Position numbers and translations under genes: made by a program | DNA from: an uncultured Acidobacteriota bacterium | GTDB lineage: Bacteria > Acidobacteriota > Thermoanaerobaculia > Multivoradales > UBA5704 | Reading direction: 5' to 3' | NCBI GenBank assembly: GCA_963770895.1 | Contig: CAVYRF010000002.1 | Coordinates: 64,001 to 128,000 of the forward strand | DNA length: 64,000 nucleotides | Part shown: positions 38,497-57,457 of the stretch, piece after piece | How positions within the stretch are numbered: the stretch's first letter is position 1 | Layout: every line of letters begins with the position of its first letter | Notes under the pieces: generated by a model | What the model was told of the DNA's origin: nothing | Database searches by the model: none | What the model saw: only the letters and a program-made list of their open reading frames with translations

Positions 38497-38606
38497 CGGC
38501 CCACCTCCCCGCCGCCGCCGGCAACGGCGCCCACCGCGGCAGAAACGGCTGTTGCCACAGAGGCGGGAGCCGGCTTACGCCCCTTGGGCAATGCCGGCTG
38601 GATCAT
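38493..38606 (-). CDS. 37-aa chimeric HisG-N/HisZ-C bridge ORF created by a 110-bp duplication
   Basis: Manual translation MIQPALPKGRKPAPASVATAVSAAVGAVAGGGGEVGR; ATGA overlaps with the hisZ stop and the hisG start. Confidence 0.7.
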   Translation of the reverse strand: MIQPALPKGRKPAPASVATAVSAAVGAVAGGGGEVGR

Positions 38607-40144
38607 CGGCCCACCTCCTCGCCGCCGGCGGCAACGGCGCCCGCGGCGGTAGCGACGGTGGTGGCTGAGGTAGGAGGTGAAGGGCTGGCGGCGGAGGCTT
38701 CGGCAACCAGGACGCCGCAGCCGGCCTCCAGCAGCCCGTCCAGGTTGAGCGAAAATCCCACCGCGTCGATGTCGGCGCCCAGCGCCCGGAACAACCCGCC
38801 ATAACGGCCGCCGCCGCCCACCGGCACCGCCGCGGCGCCGGCGTAGGCATGAAACACCAGGCCGTCGTAATACGCCCGCGCGCCTGCTTCGCCAACCTCC
38901 CAGCTCACGCCGGCAAACTCCGCCAGGTCGACCCGCAGCGCCACCCGCGGAGCCAGCGCCGCCATTTCGTCCCGCAGCGCCAGCAGCCCCCGCAGCCGCG
39001 CCGCCGCCTCGGCTCCCAGGTCCTCCGGCCGCGCCGGCAGTCCGGTCTCCACCACCGGCAGCAGCACCGGGCAGGCCCGCCGCACGACGCTGCGCTCCCG
39101 CCGCGCCACCGCCGCGGCCACCGTCGCCGGCGACTCGCCCACCGCCGCCAGCAGCGCCGCATCCAGACAGCCCGCGAGTCCCATCACCACCTCCTTGGGC
39201 CCCGACGTGGCTTCCAGCGCGGCCAAAAACAGCGCCAGCACCTCGCGCTCGGCCTCGGCAACCGCCTGCCGGCCAGCGTCTCCCGGCACGCCACCGCCGG
39301 TGTCCGCATTGCTGGCCGCTCCCGCATCACCGCCAGCCCCCGCACCGCTTCCGGCGCTCACATCCCCAGCAGCCCTTGCAGCGCCAGCAGCACTTGGAGC
39401 GCCAGCGGCCCTTGCATCGCCAGCAGCCCTTGCATCGCCAGCAGCCCTTGCATCGCCAGCAGCACTTGCATCGCCAGCAGTCCTTGCATCGCCAGCAGCC
39501 CTTGCATCGCCAGCAGCCCTTGCATCGCCAGCAGCACTTGCATCGCCAGCAGCACTTGGAGCGCCAGCAGCACTTGGAGCGCCAGCAGCCCTTGCAGCGC
39601 CAATACGACCTGCATCGCTCGCAGACCTTGCGTCATGCGCAGCTATCACATCGCGTGCGGCACTCGCATCGCTGCCAGCCCTTGCATCACCCGCGCCGCC
39701 CGCTGGATCGCCCGCGCCCGCGGGGGTCGCCGCTGACAGGCGCTCGACGCCCAGCTGGTAGAGCTCCCGCCGCCAGCCGTTCGCCTCGCCGCGGCGCTCG
39801 CGATAGCGCACCACGTCGCCGCGGTACGACAACCGCAACGGCAGCGGCGGCCCCCCCGGCCCCCCCAGGCGCGGCGCGAGCAGGCGCGCCAGCATCGGCG
39901 TGAAGTCCGCGCGCAGCGCCAGCTGCTCACCGTCGCGGTCGATGAAGCGATACAACTCGTCGCGGCTCGCCGGCGTCAGCAACGCCTCGTAGGGCTCCAG
40001 GTAGTCCAGGATGGGCAGGATCGCCTCGGCGTAGCCGTGGCGTTCAACCAGCTCTGCCAGGTGCTGCTCCAAAGCGCGCCGCGCCCGCGCGCTCTCGAAA
40101 AGCAGCGCCACCACCCCGGTCGGCAGGGCAGCCGAAACCCTCAT
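38603..40144 (-). CDS. hisZ: ATP phosphoribosyltransferase regulatory subunit with internal repeat insertion
   Basis: LPTGV, LALRADFT, RELYQLGVE, YYDGLVF, GGGRY, AVGFS; precedes short hisG. Confidence 0.9.
   Translation of the reverse strand: MRVSAALPTGVVALLFESARARRALEQHLAELVERHGYAEAILPILDYLEPYEALLTPASRDELYRFIDRDGEQLALRADFTPMLARLLAPRLGGPGGPPLPLRLSYRGDVVRYRERRGEANGWRRELYQLGVERLSAATPAGAGDPAGGAGDARAGSDASAARDVIAAHDARSASDAGRIGAARAAGAPSAAGAPSAAGDASAAGDARAAGDARAAGDARTAGDASAAGDARAAGDARAAGDARAAGAPSAAGAARAAGDVSAGSGAGAGGDAGAASNADTGGGVPGDAGRQAVAEAEREVLALFLAALEATSGPKEVVMGLAGCLDAALLAAVGESPATVAAAVARRERSVVRRACPVLLPVVETGLPARPEDLGAEAAARLRGLLALRDEMAALAPRVALRVDLAEFAGVSWEVGEAGARAYYDGLVFHAYAGAAAVPVGGGGRYGGLFRALGADIDAVGFSLNLDGLLEAGCGVLVAEASAASPSPPTSATTVATAAGAVAAGGEEVGR
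39366..39599 (-). repeat. 13 x 18-bp in-frame tandem repeat encoding (AAGDAR/AAGAPS)n in hisZ
   Basis: Plus-strand unit CCAGCAGC(C/A)CTTG(C/G)A(T/G)CG. Confidence 0.95.
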
Positions 40145-40216
40145 GCCAACCCCATATCCAAGGGCCGCAACGATGGCTGTATCACCACCTGCAATATTGG
40201 ACGCAGAACAGGCTGC

Positions 40217-40253
40217 AAAAAGCAAAACCTCCTTCCGGGTCCCGGAAAGAGGT
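40217..40253 (-). terminator. Attenuator terminator hairpin upstream of hisZ
   Basis: RNA ACCUCUUUCCGG-GAC-CCGGAAGGAGGU followed by UUUGCUUUUU. Confidence 0.85.
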
Positions 40254-51020: not shown

Positions 51021-52484
51021 CTACGCCGGCGCTCCCGGCGCCGGCACAGGCGTCGGCGGCAAGGCCGACCCCGCCAGCATTTCGCGCACTCCGGCCACCA
51101 GGTCCGCCCGCGGCACCGCCCGCTGGCCCGGCCGCTCGGCCAGCCACTCCAGGCGAGCGCCGACTTTCTTGGCCCGCTCGCGGCCGGCCTCCATATCCTT
51201 GAGCGTGACGATGCCGTTTTCCTTTTCGGTCGAGCCGTACAACAACACGATCGGCACGCCGGTCGCGTCGCCGTATTTGATCTGCTTGCCGACGCCCTTT
51301 TCGACCCCCAGGTAGAGCTCGGCCGGAATGCCGGCGCGGCGCAGCTCCCACGTCATCGCCACGCACTCCCCTTCGAGCGCCGGATCGATGCGCGCCACCA
51401 GCACCTGCGCCGTCGCCTTGCGCCCGCCCGCCCGCCCCAGGTGCTGCAGCGCCGCCAGCAACCGGTCGACGCCCACCGAAGCCCCGGTCGCAGGCAGCCG
51501 CTCGCCCAGGAAGCGCATCACCAGGTCGTCGTAGCGGCCGCCGCTCGCCACCGATCCGAACTGCGGCGCGTCCAGCAGCACCGCCTCGAACACCGGTCCG
51601 GTGTAGTACGCCAGGCCGCGGGCGATGCTCACGTCCAGCGCCACCTGGTCGCCGCCGTAGCCCAGACCGTCCAGCTGGCCCGAGATCCGCTCCACCTGGT
51701 CGATCTCGGGTCCCGCCGCCGCCTGCGCGGCGAAGAACGCCCGCAGCTGCGCGATCACCTGCCCGCGGTCGCCGCTCTGGATGGCCAGGAACTCCTCGAT
51801 GCGCGCCACCTGCTCCGCCGCCAGACCGACGCCGCGGATGAAGTCCCCGGATTCGTCGTGGTAGCCGGTCGTCAGCTCTTTCTTGACCTTCTGGATGCCG
51901 ATCTTTTCCAGCTTGTCCAGCACCCGCAGCACGTCCGCGCCGCCCGCGACCGCCACACCGATCGACCCCAGCAGCGCGTTGAGGATGCCGCGGCTGGAAT
52001 AGCGCACCCGAAAGGCGCCCACCTGGAGCGCCGTCAGCGTGTCGCACAACCCGGCGATGATCTCGACGTCCGCCAGCTCGGACTCCACCCCCACCGAGTC
52101 GATGTCGAACTGGATGAACTCGCGGTACCGCCCCTTGTCCGGCTTGTCCGCCCGCCACACCGGCGACACCTGGTACCGCCGGAACGGCCGCGGCAGGTCG
52201 TTGTACTGCGCCACCACCCGGGCCAGCGGCACCGTCAGGTCGAACCGCAGCCCCAGCGCCTCCCCCTCGGGACTTGCCACGGTGAAGATCGACTGCTGCG
52301 CCTCCTGCCCCGCCGACCCCGTCAGCACGTCCATGTACTCGATCGCCGGCGTCACCAGCGGCGTGAACCCATACAGCTCGTACACCCCCCGGATCGTATC
52401 GATCAGCCCCTGGCGGGCCAGCATCGCCTCGCTCCGCAAATCGCGCAACCCACGCGACAGCCGCGGCTCAACAGCTCCCTTCAT
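51021..52484 (-). CDS. hisS: Histidine--tRNA ligase, alphaproteobacterial/eukaryote-like type
   Basis: RGLRD, LRFDLTVPLAR, VWRADKPDKGRYREFIQFDID, DESGDF, RGLAYYTG, SGGRYD. Confidence 0.95.
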   Translation of the reverse strand: MKGAVEPRLSRGLRDLRSEAMLARQGLIDTIRGVYELYGFTPLVTPAIEYMDVLTGSAGQEAQQSIFTVASPEGEALGLRFDLTVPLARVVAQYNDLPRPFRRYQVSPVWRADKPDKGRYREFIQFDIDSVGVESELADVEIIAGLCDTLTALQVGAFRVRYSSRGILNALLGSIGVAVAGGADVLRVLDKLEKIGIQKVKKELTTGYHDESGDFIRGVGLAAEQVARIEEFLAIQSGDRGQVIAQLRAFFAAQAAAGPEIDQVERISGQLDGLGYGGDQVALDVSIARGLAYYTGPVFEAVLLDAPQFGSVASGGRYDDLVMRFLGERLPATGASVGVDRLLAALQHLGRAGGRKATAQVLVARIDPALEGECVAMTWELRRAGIPAELYLGVEKGVGKQIKYGDATGVPIVLLYGSTEKENGIVTLKDMEAGRERAKKVGARLEWLAERPGQRAVPRADLVAGVREMLAGSALPPTPVPAPGAPA

Positions 52485-52521
52485 CGCTGATTTTCCTTAC
52501 ACCGCCCCAACCCAACGCGAC

Positions 52522-53536
52522 GGCCCGGCCGCGGGGGGACAACAAGCGGGCGACGAGCCTACAAGACCGCCCCACAACGCGCAAGCAAACCGCCGCGCGC
52601 CCCGGCGAACCTGCGAAAATAGGAGGCAGCAGCGCATCCACCGCCGTCCACCCTCGCCCTTTCCCAGGAGGACCGCCCCATGAGCACGAGCAAAACGTTC
52701 GACCTGGCCGGCATCGTGAAGGCCCTGATCGCCGCGACGGACTGGGTCCACGGAGACCTCCGGGGATGGCAACCTGTCCCGCAGGCGGACAAGACCGACC
52801 GGCAGCTCGAGCTGCTGCGCCGGCTGGAGGCGATCAGCTTCGATCTGCCCCGGATTCCGGAGCTCAAGGCCTGGGCTGCGATGAGCGCCGACGAAATCAA
52901 CGCCATCCTCAAGCGCGAGGGCTTCGAGATCAAGCTCTTGCCGTGGCCGATCGACGGACGGAACTTCGGCGTGGTGGCCATCCTGGACGTCACCGTGGAG
53001 TGGATCGAGGCCGGCGACGGCGCCAAGGAGATCCGCCGCCGAACGGCCGACGGCCAATACGACCACACCACACCCGCCTATCCCGCCTTCGAGCTCTCCG
53101 CCCACCAGAACCGCCTGGAGTGCCTCACCGTGTCCGGGAGCGACCAGCCGCTGGTCCGCATCCCGACCAAGTCCGGTGACGTGGTCTGCATTCACGTAAC
53201 CCCGGACGCGGGACTCGACACCTTCGGCCTGTACGACGCCGTGGCCAGGATCTCGGCGGCAGCCAGGCCGGACCCCGACACCTACGCCAAAGTCCTGGAC
53301 GTGACCATCCCAAAGGTGAAGCTCCGCCAGCAGGTGGACATCTCCTGGATGGAGGGCATGCACATCGGCCGCACCGACCCCCAAGGCGACCCGGACCACT
53401 TCGATCTCCAGCGAGTCCTGCAGGGCCTCGACAACGTGTAGCGCCCGCAGCCGACAAGCGGCCACGAACGGGAGCAAGGCCCGGCCGCGGGGACACGACA
53501 AGCGGGCGGCCAGCCTGCAAGACCGCTCAACAACGC
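52522..53536. repeat. About 59-bp imperfect direct repeat (52522-52580 and 53478-53536) bracketing one gene
   Basis: GGCCCGGCCGCGGGG...ACAAGCGGGCG...AGCCT.CAAGACCGC...ACAACGC in both copies. Confidence 0.85.
52680..53441 (+). CDS. Hypothetical protein, possibly a C-terminally truncated serpin-like protein
   Basis: AGGAGG RBS and coding-like codon use; VTIPKVKLRQQVDISW recalls the serpin V.LPKF motif. Weak assignment. Confidence 0.6.
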   Translation: MSTSKTFDLAGIVKALIAATDWVHGDLRGWQPVPQADKTDRQLELLRRLEAISFDLPRIPELKAWAAMSADEINAILKREGFEIKLLPWPIDGRNFGVVAILDVTVEWIEAGDGAKEIRRRTADGQYDHTTPAYPAFELSAHQNRLECLTVSGSDQPLVRIPTKSGDVVCIHVTPDAGLDTFGLYDAVARISAAARPDPDTYAKVLDVTIPKVKLRQQVDISWMEGMHIGRTDPQGDPDHFDLQRVLQGLDNV

Positions 53537-53618
53537 AACAAGGCGTAAGCAAGCCGCCCGAGCGCCCCAGCCCGCAGCCGTCCAGCCGCGGAGCGCGCTC
53601 GAGCCGAAGCACCGGCGC

Positions 53619-54014
53619 TCAGGGCTGCTCTTCGGCGCCACCCTGCAGCAGGAACTCTCGCAGCGCCACGGCATTGTTGCGCTCCGTGTCGCGCGCCGCG
53701 AACACCAGCGTCAGCGTCCGCCCTGCCGCCGCGGCCCGCAGCTGGGCCAAAGCCGCCCTGGCTTCGTCGTGCGTGCGTAGCTCGTCGAAGTAGCGACGCC
53801 GCATCTCTTCCCACAGCTCCGGCCGATGGTGATACCACTCCCGGAGCGCCGTGCTCGGCGCCAGATCGCGCAGCCACAGATCCAGCCGCGCCGCCTCCTT
53901 GGAAACCCCGCGCGGCCACAGCCGGTCCACCAGCACCCGGCACCCATCCTCGGCCGCCGGCGCCTCATAAGCCCGCTTCAGCCGGATCTCGCGAATCTTG
54001 TGCAGGCGCGCCAT
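53619..54014 (-). CDS. DUF488 (YeaO-like) protein
   Basis: KRAYE...DG.RVLVDRLWPRGVSK, APSTALREWY, NNAVAL. Confidence 0.92.
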   Translation of the reverse strand: MARLHKIREIRLKRAYEAPAAEDGCRVLVDRLWPRGVSKEAARLDLWLRDLAPSTALREWYHHRPELWEEMRRRYFDELRTHDEARAALAQLRAAAAGRTLTLVFAARDTERNNAVALREFLLQGGAEEQP

Positions 54015-54118
54015 AGAACGCTAATTCCTTATGCGAGACGATCGGCGCAAGGTTTGCGCCAGGTCTTTCCACCAATGGTGATCCGACCGCTGCGCTTGGA
54101 GAGCTCCTTGACAGGCCG

Positions 54119-55123
54119 CTAGCTGTTGCGCGCGTCGTGGGAAATAAAGCGATGGTGATAGCCTGACCAATAGGCATCAAAGATTTCAGGGTTTTTCGCT
54201 TTCGATACGATGAAACATGGGCGCGCGCGATTCTCGGGTTGATATCCATTGGGTGTTAGAACCAGAAAAGCCACTCGGTCGTCCTCGGGGTCTACGAATG
54301 TGACCGAGAACGGGACGAAGGTGACTCGCCTGATGGTGAGCTGATCGGGGCCGAAGCCGGCCGCATTGGCCCAGCTATCCAGGGTTTTGAAAAACTGTGT
54401 TGCCACCTTGAGATCCTCTTTGTAGGCACTCTCGCCTGCTACATACGCCCACGTCCTGACCGCGTGCTCATCGGCAAGATTGCATAACATGATATCCACC
54501 CGACGACAACGATCGGGCATCAGGAAGTCGAAAAGAGCGGTCCGCAACTGCTCCTGACGCGCAGGTGTCTCAGTCAGAAAGAAGTGATTCTGCGCAGCGA
54601 CGAAGATATGCCTTCGTGCCCGCGAGAACAAATCAAAGAATGTGTATGGCGTGTCGGCGACTCGCCTGGCAGCAAGCGCCAACGAAGTACGCTCATGATG
54701 ATCTGTTCCAACGAGGTCTTCTGGATGCGCAGCGGACTCGGGAAAACTATTAATCCAACTTGTCAATTTCTTACCGAGCGTATTAGGTAAATCGCTTTTA
54801 TTGTATACGATCGTTCGCTGATCCTTGACATCGAAGAAGAGGTGCGACGGCGACTGTGCCAATGTGATAATCGGCTTCCCCAAGGCTTGAGCGTAGCCGA
54901 CCTCCAATGCCACATTGGGATTCTGCCCGGTTACATCGGCTATGCAGACTGTCGCTTTCCTTACTTCAGCCATCATTTGCTCAGTAATCTGGCCGGCTTT
55001 CGTGATCTCGTCGGCCCAAATACAGTCTGCTTTAGCAACTTTCGCGCGTTTGACAGCCTTTCGGATTGCTTCACGTATTTCTACAAATTCAGACTTGAAG
55101 GGCATTATTACGAAGATGTACAC
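54119..55123 (-). CDS. Low-GC nucleoside-2-deoxyribosyltransferase/TIR-like domain fused to a PLD-like (DUF5919-like) domain
   Basis: FVIMPF...IADVTGQNPNVALEVGYAQALGKP...FDV; GTG start after AGAGGA; markedly AT-richer than the flanks. Confidence 0.72.
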   Translation of the reverse strand: MYIFVIMPFKSEFVEIREAIRKAVKRAKVAKADCIWADEITKAGQITEQMMAEVRKATVCIADVTGQNPNVALEVGYAQALGKPIITLAQSPSHLFFDVKDQRTIVYNKSDLPNTLGKKLTSWINSFPESAAHPEDLVGTDHHERTSLALAARRVADTPYTFFDLFSRARRHIFVAAQNHFFLTETPARQEQLRTALFDFLMPDRCRRVDIMLCNLADEHAVRTWAYVAGESAYKEDLKVATQFFKTLDSWANAAGFGPDQLTIRRVTFVPFSVTFVDPEDDRVAFLVLTPNGYQPENRARPCFIVSKAKNPEIFDAYWSGYHHRFISHDARNS

Positions 55124-55552
55124 GTAGACGGTCCTCTTACATATGATTGAGGTGCGATGCGATTTGGGGTGGGTTTCTAATAGTCCGCCTTGGCCCTCGG
55201 CGTGCTCTCGCACATTAGCATATTTTACCGGAAGCCGTGATCGCGGTTCTCTCGGGGAGGTTGCCTACTCCAGCGAGCGCCGTGCCTCAACCGCCGCCAT
55301 TCCATCGCGCCCATCCAGGGCCACGCCAGGACCCGGCCGCGGGCGGACCAGGACGCGCTTCCGAATTCGCCGAGGTGACCACGCGCCGCCCAAAATGGGG
55401 AAGCCGAAGGTGACCGCCCGGCCCTCAGACCTCCGAAATGGGGAGCCGGCCTACGACCGCAAGCGGAAGCACGTAGAATCCCGAACGAGGATCAAGCCGC
55501 ATCCGCGACTGCTGACCGTCGCACTAAATTATTTTGATTCAGACACTTAGAA

Positions 55553-55627
55553 TGGCACCGGTGGTTGGATTTGAACCAACGACCCCCTGATCCACAGTCA
55601 GGTGCTCTCCCCCTGAGCTACACCGGC
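55553..55627 (-). tRNA. tRNA-His(GUG), non-canonical acceptor stem
   Basis: Full cloverleaf: acceptor GCCGGTG/CACCGGT, D-arm GCTC/GAGC, anticodon arm CCTGA-CTGTGGA-TCAGG, T-arm GTTGG-TTCAAAT-CCAAC, G73, encoded CCA. Confidence 0.96.
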
Positions 55628-55720: not shown

Positions 55721-57220
55721 TTAGCCGAGCTGTGGCAGAACGGGCAGGCCCAGCAGGCGGCGCGCCAGGGGGAGCGGCAGGGTTTGGCCGGTCATCAGGC
55801 GGAACTGGCCCATGGCCTGGCCCAGGAGGACTTCGCGGCCGTCCACGGTGACGGCGCCGAGCGCCGCGGCGGCCACCAGCAGCGGCGTCTGGTCGGCGCC
55901 GTCCCGGCGATAGACCAGGTCGATGACGACCGTGCCGGGCCGCACGGCGGCGACGTCGAAGGGCAGCTCTTCGCCGCGCTCGCCCCGTCCCAGCGGGGTG
56001 GCGTTGACCAGCAGGTCGAAGTCGCACGGCGCCAACTGCGCCAGCGGCAGGCATTCCAGCCCCAGGTGGGCGGCGGCCTGGGCGCCGCGCTCGGGGTCGC
56101 GGTTGAACAGGGTGACGCTGGCGCCGGCGCGGTGCAGGCCGACGGCCGCGGAACGGCCGCCGCCGCCGGCGCCGATCACCGCGGCGGTGCGGCCGGCGAC
56201 GTCGATGCCGCGCTGGCGCAGCGGCTCGACGACGCCCTCGGGGTCGGTGCATTCGGCTTCCCAGACGCCGGCGCGCAGCACCAGGGTGTTGGCGGCGCCG
56301 ATCAGGCCGGCGAGCGGGCTTTCGGCGCCGGCGACGGCCAGGGCGGCGGCCTTGTGGGGGGCGGTGATCGACAGACCCTGGATGGGCAGCCCCAGGGAGT
56401 CCAGGCCGCCCTCCTCGATCACCTCCAGCCAGAAGTCGCCGAAGGCCGGGGCGTCGAAGCCCAGGTAGAGGGCGGGGATGCCCAGTTCCCGGTAGGCGCC
56501 GTTGTGCAGGCGCGGCGACAGCGAATGGGCGACCGGGTGGCCGGCGACGCCGCAGAGCGTGGCGACCGGCGGCAGCGCCGGCAGGCCGTAGTCTTCGCGC
56601 AGCGAGCGGATGGTGGGCTGCCCCGGCGCGACCGGCGCGTCGCCGGCGGCGCCGTAGACGACCGGCGCGCCCAGCCGTGGCGCCAGCAGGCGCGTCCAGG
56701 CGCCCGACGCCCCGGCGGCGAAGGCGATCACGTCCGTACGCTCCAGGCGCTTGAGCAGGGCGAGCGGCGCCAGGTTTTCGCCCGGTTGCCCGGCGGCCGT
56801 GACCAGCTTGTAGAGCGCCGCGTCGGCCTCCGTCAGGCGGCCCAGGCAGGCCTCCAGGGCGTCCACGTCACCGGCCGGGCCGTGCCACGAAATCACCCGC
56901 CGCTCGGGCGGGATGGCTTCCAGGATCTCGGGCCGCAGGTCGCGCGCGCCCTCCAGGTCGAGGCGGTCGTAGCGCGCCGCGGCGTCGAGCAGGCGGCGCT
57001 TGCGGCGTTCGAGCGAGCCCTCGAAGGCGCCCCATTCCGCGCGGCTGCGCAGGGTGTACAGGAGCTTGCCGGGAAACAGGCGGCGCAGCGGCTCGGGATC
57101 GAGGTCGCCGGCCAGGTCGGCGCGCACCTCCAGCCATTGGACCCCTTCCAGGTCAGCCGCCACCGCGGGGGTGAGCGGCGCGCTCAGCGTGGCGACCAGG
57201 GAAGCCTCGGCGGCCGGCAT
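55721..57220 (-). CDS. aroE: Fused type I 3-dehydroquinate dehydratase and shikimate dehydrogenase
   Basis: EVRAD, ISWH, YKLV, APGQ, then HSLSPRLHN, ITAPHK, GAANT, GAGG, VNATPLG. Confidence 0.88.
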   Translation of the reverse strand: MPAAEASLVATLSAPLTPAVAADLEGVQWLEVRADLAGDLDPEPLRRLFPGKLLYTLRSRAEWGAFEGSLERRKRRLLDAAARYDRLDLEGARDLRPEILEAIPPERRVISWHGPAGDVDALEACLGRLTEADAALYKLVTAAGQPGENLAPLALLKRLERTDVIAFAAGASGAWTRLLAPRLGAPVVYGAAGDAPVAPGQPTIRSLREDYGLPALPPVATLCGVAGHPVAHSLSPRLHNGAYRELGIPALYLGFDAPAFGDFWLEVIEEGGLDSLGLPIQGLSITAPHKAAALAVAGAESPLAGLIGAANTLVLRAGVWEAECTDPEGVVEPLRQRGIDVAGRTAAVIGAGGGGRSAAVGLHRAGASVTLFNRDPERGAQAAAHLGLECLPLAQLAPCDFDLLVNATPLGRGERGEELPFDVAAVRPGTVVIDLVYRRDGADQTPLLVAAAALGAVTVDGREVLLGQAMGQFRLMTGQTLPLPLARRLLGLPVLPQLG

Positions 57221-57457
57221 GGCGCAAGGATACCGGAAGCGCCGCCCTTCCCCGTCTTCGTCACACAGCCGGCGCTTCCACTGCACAACGGACCGTGCAA
57301 GAATGATCTTGTAGCCAGGTGACGGGCAGGGGCCCGCCAAAGCGGCGGTGATCCTTGCTTTGCCGAGCCACCGGCGAGTCGCCTTCGACCAGAAACCGAC
57401 AGATCTCGGCGTTTTCGGGATTGCGCTCGATAACTAGCAGCGTTCTTGGCCTTCGCT

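Follow-up and report, generated by a model that had tools for sequence, protein, structure and literature searches.

G-1 on tRNA-His is one of the most conserved tRNA identity marks. In the standard bacterial system, exemplified by E. coli, an encoded G-1 faces C73, and the partner histidyl-tRNA synthetase (HisRS) carries an R-P-Q motif-2 loop whose Gln reads G-1:C73. In eukaryotes, tRNA-His has A73 and an unencoded G-1 (PMC3245924) that is added by Thg1, although G-1-independent HisRS are found in Trypanosoma and Acanthamoeba (PMC4338351, PMC3561963). The papers we consulted describe the loss of G-1 in bacteria as confined to one alphaproteobacterial clade, or to "some groups of alpha-Proteobacteria" (PMC9976931), and the trait has been used as a phylogenetic marker, for example in placing SAR11. 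This clade comprises the RRCH alphaproteobacteria (Rhodobacterales, Rhizobiales, Caulobacterales, Hyphomonadaceae). The system was characterized in Caulobacter crescentus, whose HisRS charges G-1-less tRNA: U72C costs 91-fold, anticodon changes cost 91-1000-fold, A73C costs only 3-fold, and an added G-1 lowers charging 5-fold (PMC3064791).

Here, we describe a pair of this type in a soil bacterium that is not an alphaproteobacterium and is, by the names of its nearest homologs (Thermoanaerobaculia/Acidobacteriota MAGs), probably an acidobacterium. A literature search, in which most subscription journals were not represented, found no paper reporting G-1-less tRNA-His or this HisRS type in Acidobacteriota, Planctomycetota, or Hydrogenedentota. 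The presence of the pair in a different phylum, as a physically linked tRNA-synthetase unit and with sister species of one genus using the old and the new system, weakens the trait as a clade marker. The fresh scars in these genomes provide a natural, datable series for asking how an essential, orthogonal synthetase/tRNA pair can replace the resident one, and the locus offers new orthogonal HisRS/tRNA-His pairs, including a G73, short-D-loop variant, for genetic-code engineering.

The synthetase and its tRNA

The window analysed is a stretch of 64,000 nucleotides. Its hisS gene (51021-52484, minus strand) starts with ATG, encodes 487 aa, and matches Pfam tRNA-synt_His (PF13393; 2.4e-45), HGTP_anticodon (PF03129; 2.5e-10), and NCBIfam TIGR00442 (338.7 bits against a cut-off of 286.75), with motif 3 (GGRYD) intact, as for a functional synthetase rather than a HisZ paralog. 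It is the only hisS in the genome (hereafter G000): no other gene exceeded the TIGR00442 cut-off, and a search with a relative's standard HisRS found only this gene, at about 30% identity. The first-pass annotation had reported the motifs SPVWRADKPDKGRYREFIQFDIDSVG and ADVLRVLDKLEKIGIQKVKKELTTGYHDESGDFIRGVGL and an aberrant tRNA-His 3 kb away, and this observation was confirmed. The E. coli-type motif-2 string with which it contrasted the enzyme, FRHERPQKGRYRQF, was verified on E. coli K-12 hisS. ARAGORN found a single tRNA in the window, a tRNA-His(GTG) at 55553-55627 (minus strand; Rfam tRNA, 69.2 bits), 3,068 nt upstream of the hisS start and on the same strand. This tRNA has a G1.U72 wobble pair, G73, an encoded CCA, a 7-nt D-loop, and C rather than G at -1. 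It is the only match of the tRNA-His pattern in the genome, which has no C72/C73 tRNA-His, although a second, irregular GTG tRNA-like gene exists elsewhere; the supplements of PMC5389517 and Figure S1 of PMC3937112 may bear on the irregular-tRNA and motif-2 statements.

Three features are shared by the enzyme with HisRS of Cereibacter, Ruegeria, Sinorhizobium, and Methylobacterium, and are absent from E. coli, three standard relatives, Parabacteroides, Vescimonas, and a haloarchaeon. The motif-2 loop has K-P-[G/D] in place of R-P-Q: E. coli has ERPQKGR, the alphaproteobacteria have EKPGPGR (Gly123 in PMC3937112), relatives G018 and G012 have DKPGPGR, and G000 and relative G024 have DKPDKGR, lacking Gln but with Asp instead of Gly. 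The second feature is a 12-aa DESGDF segment, and the third is an insert in the anticodon-binding domain, RAKKVGARLEWLAERPGQR; such an insert is named in PMC3064791 and PMC3245924 as the likely anticodon reader. This insert of about 19 aa is present in G000, three relatives, the four alphaproteobacteria, and the aligned rows P0121, P0124, P0126, and P0129; P0122 has a shorter form, and the seven outgroup rows lack it. The best named tblastn hits were Rhodobacterales at 42-45% and Rhizobiales at 38% identity, compared to 23.5% for E. coli. With the standard bacterial type (E. coli and the same-genus relatives G002 and G009; 23.5-30% identity), the enzyme shares the class II HisRS fold with motifs 2 and 3 and an HGTP anticodon domain, and the tRNA has the same GUG anticodon.

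Grouping with standard bacterial HisRS had been named in advance as one result that would overturn this assignment. The enzyme instead fell with Rhodobacterales and Rhizobiales HisRS in a 29-row clade with 100/100 support that excludes the E. coli-type, Bacteroidota, Clostridia, and archaeal enzymes, and in a 57-row clade with support of 99 in FastTree. It is a sister lineage, not nested within the alphaproteobacteria. The trees left out relative G005, whose hisS is split over two frames, a truncated Stenotrophomonas plasmid copy, and representatives outside 410-560 aa (15 of 150).

In a PDB sequence search, the best matches were HisRS of Nostoc (3NET, 4e-58) and 6NHI (2e-57), both over nearly the full length and both lacking the DESGDF segment in the alignments, followed by human cytoplasmic HisRS (1e-54) and the T. 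cruzi and T. brucei enzymes (1e-36 to 1e-39); E. coli and T. thermophilus scored about 1e-23 to 1e-24. No structure of the G-1-independent bacterial type was found in this search, and PMC3064791 states that none was available in 2010; neither the enzyme nor its tRNA contacts were modeled here. Like the eukaryotic tRNA-His, the window tRNA has a purine discriminator; the eukaryotic enzymes were not placed in our trees, nor were the bacterial-clade indels examined in them. The greater similarity to human than to E. coli HisRS could suggest a eukaryote-like, G-1-dependent enzyme with G-1 added after transcription opposite R73, but we consider this very improbable. Thg1 and Thg1C domains (PF04446 and PF14413) gave no match in G000, which is 94.95% complete, while the control genome Methanosarcina matched. 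In addition, the motif-2 loop lacks the Arg/Gln of G-1:C73 readers, and the nearest characterized relative is G-1-independent.

Compared to the Caulobacter pair, the window tRNA shares the absence of an encoded G-1, the G1.U72 pair, a purine at 73, and A38, and in both cases hisS is a single copy without Thg1. However, G000 departs from the Caulobacter rules in having G73 instead of A73, a 7-nt D-loop without U20a (alphaproteobacterial genes always have 9 nt according to PMC3064791), and Asp at the Gly position of motif 2. Among the relatives, 8 of 17 have A73, with 9-11-nt loops, and in Caulobacter these two tRNA elements cost only 3-fold and 2-fold. Since the enzyme is only 38-45% identical to the alphaproteobacterial ones, functional equivalence rests on shared indels and on covariation. 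Linkage of the tRNA to hisS also differs, as it was seen in none of the 60-odd alphaproteobacterial loci examined.

Covariation and linkage among relatives

HisRS type and tRNA-His type covaried without exception in 28 of 28 relatives in which both were scored. G1.U72, R73, and a variable -1 base occurred in 17 of 17 relatives that carry this HisRS and in which a tRNA-His was found (none was found in three further such genomes, 85-88% complete), whereas encoded G-1, C72, and C73 occurred in 11 of 11 relatives with standard HisRS. In a sample of 201 genomes of the class, 46 carry this HisRS, and the same 46 match the U72/R73 pattern, plus one non-tRNA-like chance hit; the C72/C73 pattern was matched by 132 others and by none of the 46. 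BLAST with the window tRNA found only tRNAs of the same type, hitting tRNA-Thr, tRNA-Pro, and others in genomes with the standard HisRS. A covariance model built from 15 G-1-less tRNA-His genes behaved as a general tRNA model, its top hits in 10 genomes being Thr, Asn, Phe, and others with no His, and an IUPAC pattern was used in its place.

Synteny of tRNA-His and hisS in relatives, a check proposed at the outset, showed that the two form one unit. In 36 of the 46 class genomes the tRNA lies directly upstream of hisS, within about 400 nt; in most relatives it sits 14-382 nt upstream on the same strand, with a spacer of 24-64 nt in most. In genomes of this order the unit lies between an aroD-aroE fusion (dehydroquinase/shikimate dehydrogenase; 55721-57340, minus strand, in the window) and a hisZ-like HisRS paralog (38603-40225, minus strand; 540 aa, below family cut-offs). 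The aroDE gene is next to tRNA-His in relatives G004, G005, G007, G012, and G028, and the hisZ-like gene lies 1.5-5.5 kb downstream of hisS in G001, G003, G007, G008, G012, G015, and G028.

The first-pass interpretation, of a Caulobacter/Rhizobiales-type HisRS forming a co-adapted and possibly co-transferred pair with its tRNA that was later separated by small inserted genes, is supported in each part, with the refinements that the enzyme is a sister lineage, that the covariation holds in the class sample, and that the gap includes low-GC DNA and a repeat-flanked ORF. Our data demonstrate the sequence type, single copy, covariation, linkage, and deletion scars, while charging without G-1, cleavage at +1, and the direction and number of transfers are inferences. 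Co-transfer is supported by linkage and by the likeness of the tRNA across phyla but is not proven. We consider it likely that this sole HisRS is of the G-1-independent type and that its substrate is the neighboring tRNA-His, which RNase P would cut at the normal +1 position, leaving no extra 5' guanylate. By analogy with the Caulobacter enzyme, recognition would be through the GUG anticodon, probably read by the extra loop in the anticodon-binding domain, together with U72 and the discriminator base. No aminoacylation or 5'-end data exist for this organism, and no RNA run containing the locus was listed.

Alternatively, the mature tRNA may keep its -1 nucleotide, with C-1 pairing with G73 (or U-1 with A73), RNase P cutting one position early as on G-1:C73 precursors, and an 8-bp acceptor stem with a non-G extra base resulting. 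PMC3064791 and PMC3245924 state that the -1:73 pair drives the shifted cut, and -1 and 73 are Watson-Crick complementary in 19 of 23 genes of this type outside the alphaproteobacteria (C-1 with G73 in 8 of 9, T-1 with A73 in 11 of 14). While a retained C-1 is not excluded, this reading is unlikely. The eight C-1/G73 genes all lie in one family and are not independent, G010 has G-1 with G73, and G013, G014, and G015 have G-1 with A73. Five alphaproteobacterial genes have t, g, t, c, and g at -1, all with A73. U at -1 is a general RNase P preference, and added G-1 reduces charging in Caulobacter.

Displacement of the standard pair and its possible history

Both genes of the ancestral system have been deleted from their conserved sites in G000. 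The cluster Pro(tgg)-Arg(tct)-His-Arg(ccg) is intact in 11 of 11 standard genomes, but His is missing in all 19 atypical genomes where the cluster was located; G012 keeps a decayed full-length pseudogene, and G018 keeps the acceptor-stem halves. The flanks of the standard hisS of G009 and G002, which belong to the same genus as G000, map 190 bp apart in G000 with no remnant between them. These scars contradict convergent change of the native HisRS and tRNA-His in place, which PMC5370408 mentions as one reading of the alphaproteobacterial case, since the new genes sit elsewhere. Convergence is also contradicted by the indels shared with other phyla and by the trees, and is very improbable: the enzyme is about 27% identical to the standard one of the same genus, and the tRNA is 63-64% like the same-genus standard tRNA-His but 64-89% like G-1-less tRNA-His of other phyla.

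It is about as likely as not that the unit spread sideways several times among related acidobacterial lineages, entering each time at the same aroDE|hisZ junction by recombination through the conserved flanks, with the standard pair lost afterwards. The distribution is patchy at every rank: the same genus holds both types, and one family (f14) has the unit in 37 of 48 genomes. With RpoB frames chosen by BLAST, the best RpoB tree needs 7 changes of type, and starred branches force at least 4. The HisRS tree joins G018 to genus g1 at 100/99, and an AU test rejects the RpoB-like grouping (p=0.005), although RpoB alone cannot reject g1+G018 (p=0.094), and the tested group was named after a first tree had been seen. 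The empty site is pristine, with aroDE abutting the hisZ-like gene, in the standard-type genomes G002, G009, and G020. The nearly full-length tRNA pseudogene in G012, absent from its close relatives G013 and G014, points to separate, recent losses. However, HisRS identities fall with taxonomic rank (78-80% in the genus, 70-76% in the family, 64-71% beyond), as vertical descent would also give, and no donor-recipient pair was identified.

A single early acquisition in the class, followed by long coexistence of both orthogonal pairs and loss of one or the other in each lineage, is possible but less favored. The unit occupies the same locus (aroDE - tRNA-His - hisS - ... - hisZ) in different families (G012 and G015 in f1, G028 in f11), both HisRS types roughly track taxonomy, and the two pair types are mutually orthogonal in vitro (PMC3064791), making coexistence feasible. 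Yet none of 31 relatives and none of 46 class genomes carries both systems, restoring abutting aroDE and hisZ genes would need precise excision in at least three standard lineages, and the HisRS and RpoB trees conflict.

More broadly, the G-1-less system may not be a one-off synapomorphy of one alphaproteobacterial clade but a portable two-gene identity cassette, with tRNA-His directly upstream of hisS, that moves between phyla and repeatedly displaces the near-universal G-1 system; we regard this as equally likely to be right or wrong. The pair (this HisRS type with a G1.U72/R73 tRNA-His) was seen in the window's class and in Blastocatellia, Hydrogenedentota, and unnamed lineages, and the HisRS type alone was seen in Vicinamibacteria, Planctomycetota, Zixibacteria, and Ca. 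Lernaella. The scoring of tRNA-His positions -1, 72, and 73 and of linkage did not cover Ca. Uabimicrobium, Phycisphaerales, Zixibacteria, Ca. Lernaella, and Vicinamibacteria. The alphaproteobacterial case, which nests among non-alphaproteobacterial sequences in the tree, would then be one old instance that lost the linkage.

DNA separating the tRNA from hisS

In G000, the unit was later split by 3 kb of inserted DNA at the tRNA 3' end; the DNA now separating the tRNA from hisS is 3,068 nt long (52485-55552). Directly 3' of the tRNA is a low-GC (0.50-0.57) ORF of 364 aa (54119-55213, minus strand) with a weak nucleoside 2-deoxyribosyltransferase/TIR-like N-terminal match (PF05014, 1.9e-07; PADLOC TIR effector, 4.3e-09), which was probably acquired and is possibly a defense gene. 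A search of the window for an att-like second copy of the tRNA 3' half found none. The separating DNA also encodes a 131-aa DUF488 protein (53619-54014, minus strand; PF22752, 1.1e-37; PF04343, 3e-33) and, on the opposite strand, an ORF of 253 aa (52680-53441, plus strand) with no family match; PADLOC returned nothing for either. The 253-aa ORF is flanked by 59-nt direct repeats (52522-52580 and 53478-53536) with 86% identity, which are not the ancestral tRNA-hisS spacer and, with only these two copies in the genome, are not a dispersed element.

Type of the histidyl-tRNA synthetase

The first-pass annotation reported a Caulobacter/Rhizobiales-type histidyl-tRNA synthetase (HisRS) gene about 3 kb from an aberrant tRNA-His, and this observation is borne out. 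The ORF at 51021-52484(-) encodes 487 aa from an ATG start, carries both the motif-2 string and the insertion string on which that annotation relied, and matches Pfam tRNA-synt_His and HGTP_anticodon as well as NCBIfam TIGR00442 hisS (338.7 bits against a cut-off of 286.75). The only tRNA in the window, tRNA-His(GTG) at 55553-55627(-), lies 3,068 nt upstream on the same strand (Rfam tRNA, 69.2 bits). Its gene has a G1.U72 wobble pair, G73 and an encoded CCA, and the base at -1 is C, so no G-1 is encoded.

The source genome (G000) is an 8.16-Mb assembly of 3 contigs with a GC content of 0.71 and 94.95% completeness, in which a family search found a single hisS over the cut-off. The other matches were a 697-aa frame, which was not examined, and a hisZ-like paralog of 540 aa at 38603-40225(-), which scores below the family cut-offs and whose match is split in two by about 150 extra residues. 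No Thg1 domain is present. All 12 of the named sequences among the 120 nearest homologs (70-84% identity) are from Thermoanaerobaculia, Acidobacteriota or Acidobacteria MAGs, and one named Thermoanaerobaculia MAG and one Vicinamibacteria MAG are 70% and 63.5% identical, respectively. By this evidence the host is therefore an acidobacterium, not an alphaproteobacterium.

ARAGORN also identified one further GTG tRNA-like gene, at C2:4578857-4578930 (contig 2), with an 8-bp acceptor stem (C-1:G73), a poor anticodon stem and C33, 20 nt from a similar GAU tRNA-like gene (the tandem pair lies at 1059-1129 and 1149-1214 of extracted locus L139). The two score 51.4 and 54.8 bits against Rfam tRNA and resemble the irregular tRNA arrays reported from acidobacteria (PMC5389517), and we do not count the GTG gene as the working tRNA-His. 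Elsewhere in the genome, ARAGORN called four unusually long tRNAs of 91-98 nt (Pro-tgg, Arg-acg and two Pro-ggg; C2:3259668-3259762, 3741557-3741651, 4152578-4152675 and 5150219-5150309), two undetermined tRNAs and a tRNA-SeC, which may be allo-tRNA-like species.

The enzyme is much closer to Nostoc 3NET (4e-58), 6NHI (2e-57) and human cytoplasmic HisRS (1e-54) than to the E. coli, T. thermophilus or S. aureus enzymes (1e-23 to 1e-24). Among named records in PLSDB, which include chromids and mislabelled chromosomes, the best hits were Rhodobacterales (42-45% identity over 94-96% of the query) and Rhizobiales (about 38%), followed by Clostridia, Actinomycetota and Bacteroidota (31-36%) and by Bacillus and haloarchaea (27-31%). 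A 20-row alignment revealed three features shared with Cereibacter, Ruegeria, Sinorhizobium and Methylobacterium but absent from E. coli, three standard-type relatives, Parabacteroides, Vescimonas and a haloarchaeon: an insert of about 19 aa in the anticodon-binding domain (here RAKKVGARLEWLAERPGQR); a 12-aa extra segment in the insertion domain, which reads TGYHDESGDFIR here and GRKDESGDFTKG in the alphaproteobacteria; and a motif-2 loop with K-P-G or K-P-D where standard enzymes have R-P-Q (ERPQKGR in E. coli, EKPGPGR in alphaproteobacteria, DKPGPGR in relatives and DKPDKGR in this gene). The citing literature names the first feature as the likely anticodon reader, and the Gln-to-Gly change as the mark of the G-1-less clade (PMC3064791; PMC3245924; PMC3937112).

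The first-pass annotation had proposed a HisRS phylogeny as a test of its reading, which grouping with standard bacterial HisRS would have contradicted; our trees instead agree with the assignment. FastTree on 175 rows gave a 57-row clade at 99, and a careful IQ-TREE mixture tree on 44 rows gave a 29-row clade at 100/100 that holds the acidobacterial sequences, the alphaproteobacterial ones and further representatives, while excluding the Bacteroidota, Clostridia, Actinomycetota, archaeal and E. coli-type enzymes. Within it the acidobacterial group (96/96 with the representative P0123) and the alphaproteobacterial group are separate, and the alphaproteobacteria nest among sequences named Planctomycetota MAG, Ca. 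Uabimicrobium, Phycisphaerales and Ca. Lernaella (99/98, 100/99, 96/89, 99/92).

Covariation with tRNA-His and traces of the displaced system

The interpretation offered by the first-pass annotation, that synthetase and tRNA are a co-adapted and possibly co-transferred pair later separated by small inserted genes, is supported. Among 31 genomes of the window's order (G000 plus 30), 20 have this HisRS at 64-100% identity and no standard one, 11 have a standard HisRS (61-100% identical to that of G009, a species of the window's genus) and not this one, and none has both. A tRNA-His pattern search combined with ARAGORN gave G1.U72 with G73 (9 genomes) or A73 (8 genomes) in 17 of the 20, with a variable base at -1; in the other 3, which are 85-88% complete, no tRNA-His was found. 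All 11 standard genomes have an encoded G-1, G1-C72 and C73, and two species of the window's own genus, G002 and G009, are of this standard kind.

The same relationship holds in a sample of 201 genomes of the class, in which 46 have this HisRS (E <= 1e-80). The U72/R73 tRNA-His pattern hits exactly those 46, plus one hit in genome G147 that is not tRNA-like; the C72/C73 pattern hits 132 genomes, none of them among the 46; and 23 match neither pattern. By family of this sample, the HisRS is found in f1 (4/4), f2 (1/1), f4 (2/2), f7 (1/1) and f14 (37/48), but in none of f8 (29 genomes), f16 (27), f17 (28), f19 (19) or f20 (20). These tallies include three genomes flagged as unpublished (G195, G199 and G034). 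Three genomes (G098, G153 and G199) carry two copies of the atypical hisS, the second copy being 58% identical to the query in G098 and G153, and two genomes (G032 and G176) carry two G-1-less tRNA-His genes, in tandem upstream of hisS in G032.

In all 11 standard genomes tRNA-His lies in a cluster Pro(tgg)-Arg(tct)-His-Arg(ccg), whereas His is missing in the 19 atypical genomes where the cluster was located: 18 have Pro-Arg-Arg with a spacer of 23-112 nt, and G015 has Arg(ccg) elsewhere. In G010 the cluster was not found. In G000 it lies at C2:2223834-2224140 with a 23-nt spacer. The spacers still hold remnants: G012 has a full-length but decayed copy of the standard tRNA-His, G018 has the two acceptor-stem halves joined by an internal deletion, and G011 and G000 have a 9-nt match to the 3' end (with one mismatch in G000). 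The standard hisS has also gone, since the two flanks of the G009 and G002 standard hisS map to G000 C2:310867-312345 and C2:312536-313396, 190 bp apart, with no detectable hisS remnant between them. The standard system was therefore there first and was removed.

The tRNA-hisS locus and its history

Synteny in relatives, which had likewise been named in advance as a check, links the two genes. In 36 of the 46 class genomes the tRNA lies on the same strand about 14-382 nt upstream of the hisS match, and in 2 more about 1.6 kb upstream; in 7 relatives from which the spacer was extracted it is 24-64 nt and is not conserved. aroDE lies next to tRNA-His in the relatives G004, G005, G007, G012 and G028, a 273-aa secreted protein follows hisS in four species of the genus, and a hisZ-like gene lies 1.5-5.5 kb downstream of hisS in seven genomes. 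In the standard genomes G002, G009 and G020, aroDE abuts the hisZ-like gene directly. The unit thus occupies a defined site between two conserved genes, and that site is empty in sister species. In Rhodobacterales, hisS is followed by hisZ and hisG.

In the window's genus the tRNA and hisS have been pulled apart, by 3 kb here and 62 kb in G003, and onto different contigs in G004, G005 and G007. The separating DNA in this window holds a 364-aa ORF at 54119-55213(-) directly 3' of the tRNA, a DUF488 gene, and a 253-aa ORF on the other strand flanked by 59-nt direct repeats that occur nowhere else in the genome. The 364-aa ORF has a GC content of 0.50-0.57, a weak nucleoside 2-deoxyribosyltransferase/TIR-like N-terminal match and an unassigned C-terminal part, and it looks like an acquired defence-type gene. 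This arrangement fits insertion at the tRNA 3' end, in keeping with the small inserted genes proposed in the first-pass annotation. Partial matches to the 3' half of the tRNA-His at G004:C191:910-959 and G019:C25:78219-78275, 30 kb and 4.4 kb from hisS, may be att-type remnants of elements integrated at the tRNA.

On an RpoB tree of 26 of the 31 genomes, the five atypical species of the genus form a clade (99/98), with G002 and G009 outside it but inside the genus (100/99); the type needs 7 changes on the best tree, and starred branches force at least 4. The HisRS tree joins G018 to the genus (100/99) and rejects the RpoB-like grouping (AU p=0.005). However, RpoB cannot reject the HisRS-like grouping (p=0.094), and we named the tested group after seeing a first tree, so we cannot decide between two histories. 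One is repeated lateral spread through the conserved flanks, which we favor, though at no better than even confidence. Alternatively, one early gain may have been followed by long coexistence and differential loss, which we regard as rather unlikely; no genome with both systems was seen.

Occurrence in other phyla and inferred charging mechanism

Outside the class, a scan of GTDB species genomes returned at least 80 loci. tRNA-His with G1.U72 and A73 lies directly upstream of hisS in a Thermoanaerobaculia MAG, a Blastocatellia MAG and one other bacterium, whereas no tRNA-His lies within 3 kb of hisS in any of the 60-odd alphaproteobacterial loci. Whole-genome pattern searches found G1.U72/A73 tRNA-His in a Hydrogenedentota MAG, a MAG labelled Luminiphilus and one further MAG; the HisRS of all three matches the window's over the full length at 40-43% identity. 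Two Planctomycetota, two Poribacteria and another MAG have the encoded G-1/C73 type; for four of them the HisRS match stops before the C-terminal insert, and for the last-named MAG it runs further but at 33% identity. A Lutibacter MAG (Bacteroidota; loci L270 and L296) has two tRNA-His genes, one of the standard kind (G-1, C73) and one just downstream of hisS with T at -1 but C73 and an encoded CCA.

The G-1-less tRNAs of G000 and its relative G013 are 64-89% identical to G-1-less tRNAs of other phyla, but only 63-64% identical to the standard tRNA-His of their own genus. This favors import of the tRNA with the enzyme, although shared constraints could contribute and 75 nt carry little signal.

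The kind of system is known, but the papers we consulted confine it to alphaproteobacteria among bacteria (PMC3064791; PMC3245924; PMC3937112; PMC9976931; PMC5370408), and our literature searches, which did not extend to the two founding papers (Wang 2007; Ardell & Andersson 2006) or to supplements, found no report from other bacterial phyla. What appears new is the host phylum, the physical tRNA-hisS linkage, the variant with G73, a short D-loop and an Asp loop, the presence of old and new systems side by side in sister species of one genus, the scars of replacement, and the wider spread over phyla.

While the sequence type, single hisS, covariation, linkage and deletion scars are documented directly, the mode of charging is an inference. 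We infer that RNase P cuts at +1, that the enzyme does not need G-1, that the GUG anticodon and U72 are the main determinants, and that position 73 is a minor one, which would explain why G73 and A73 both occur. Neither charging nor the tRNA 5' end has been measured in this lineage; the support comes from homology to the Caulobacter enzyme (G-1 not needed; U72C 91-fold; anticodon changes 91-1000-fold; A73C 3-fold; loss of U20a 2-fold; PMC3064791), the perfect covariation and the lack of Thg1. One odd point is that the -1 base is complementary to base 73 in 19 of 23 non-alphaproteobacterial genes, for a cause we do not know, and a retained -1 base is therefore not excluded. C goes with G73 in 8 of 9 of these genes and T with A73 in 11 of 14, while G013, G014 and G015 have G at -1 opposite A73, and five alphaproteobacterial genes show no such rule.
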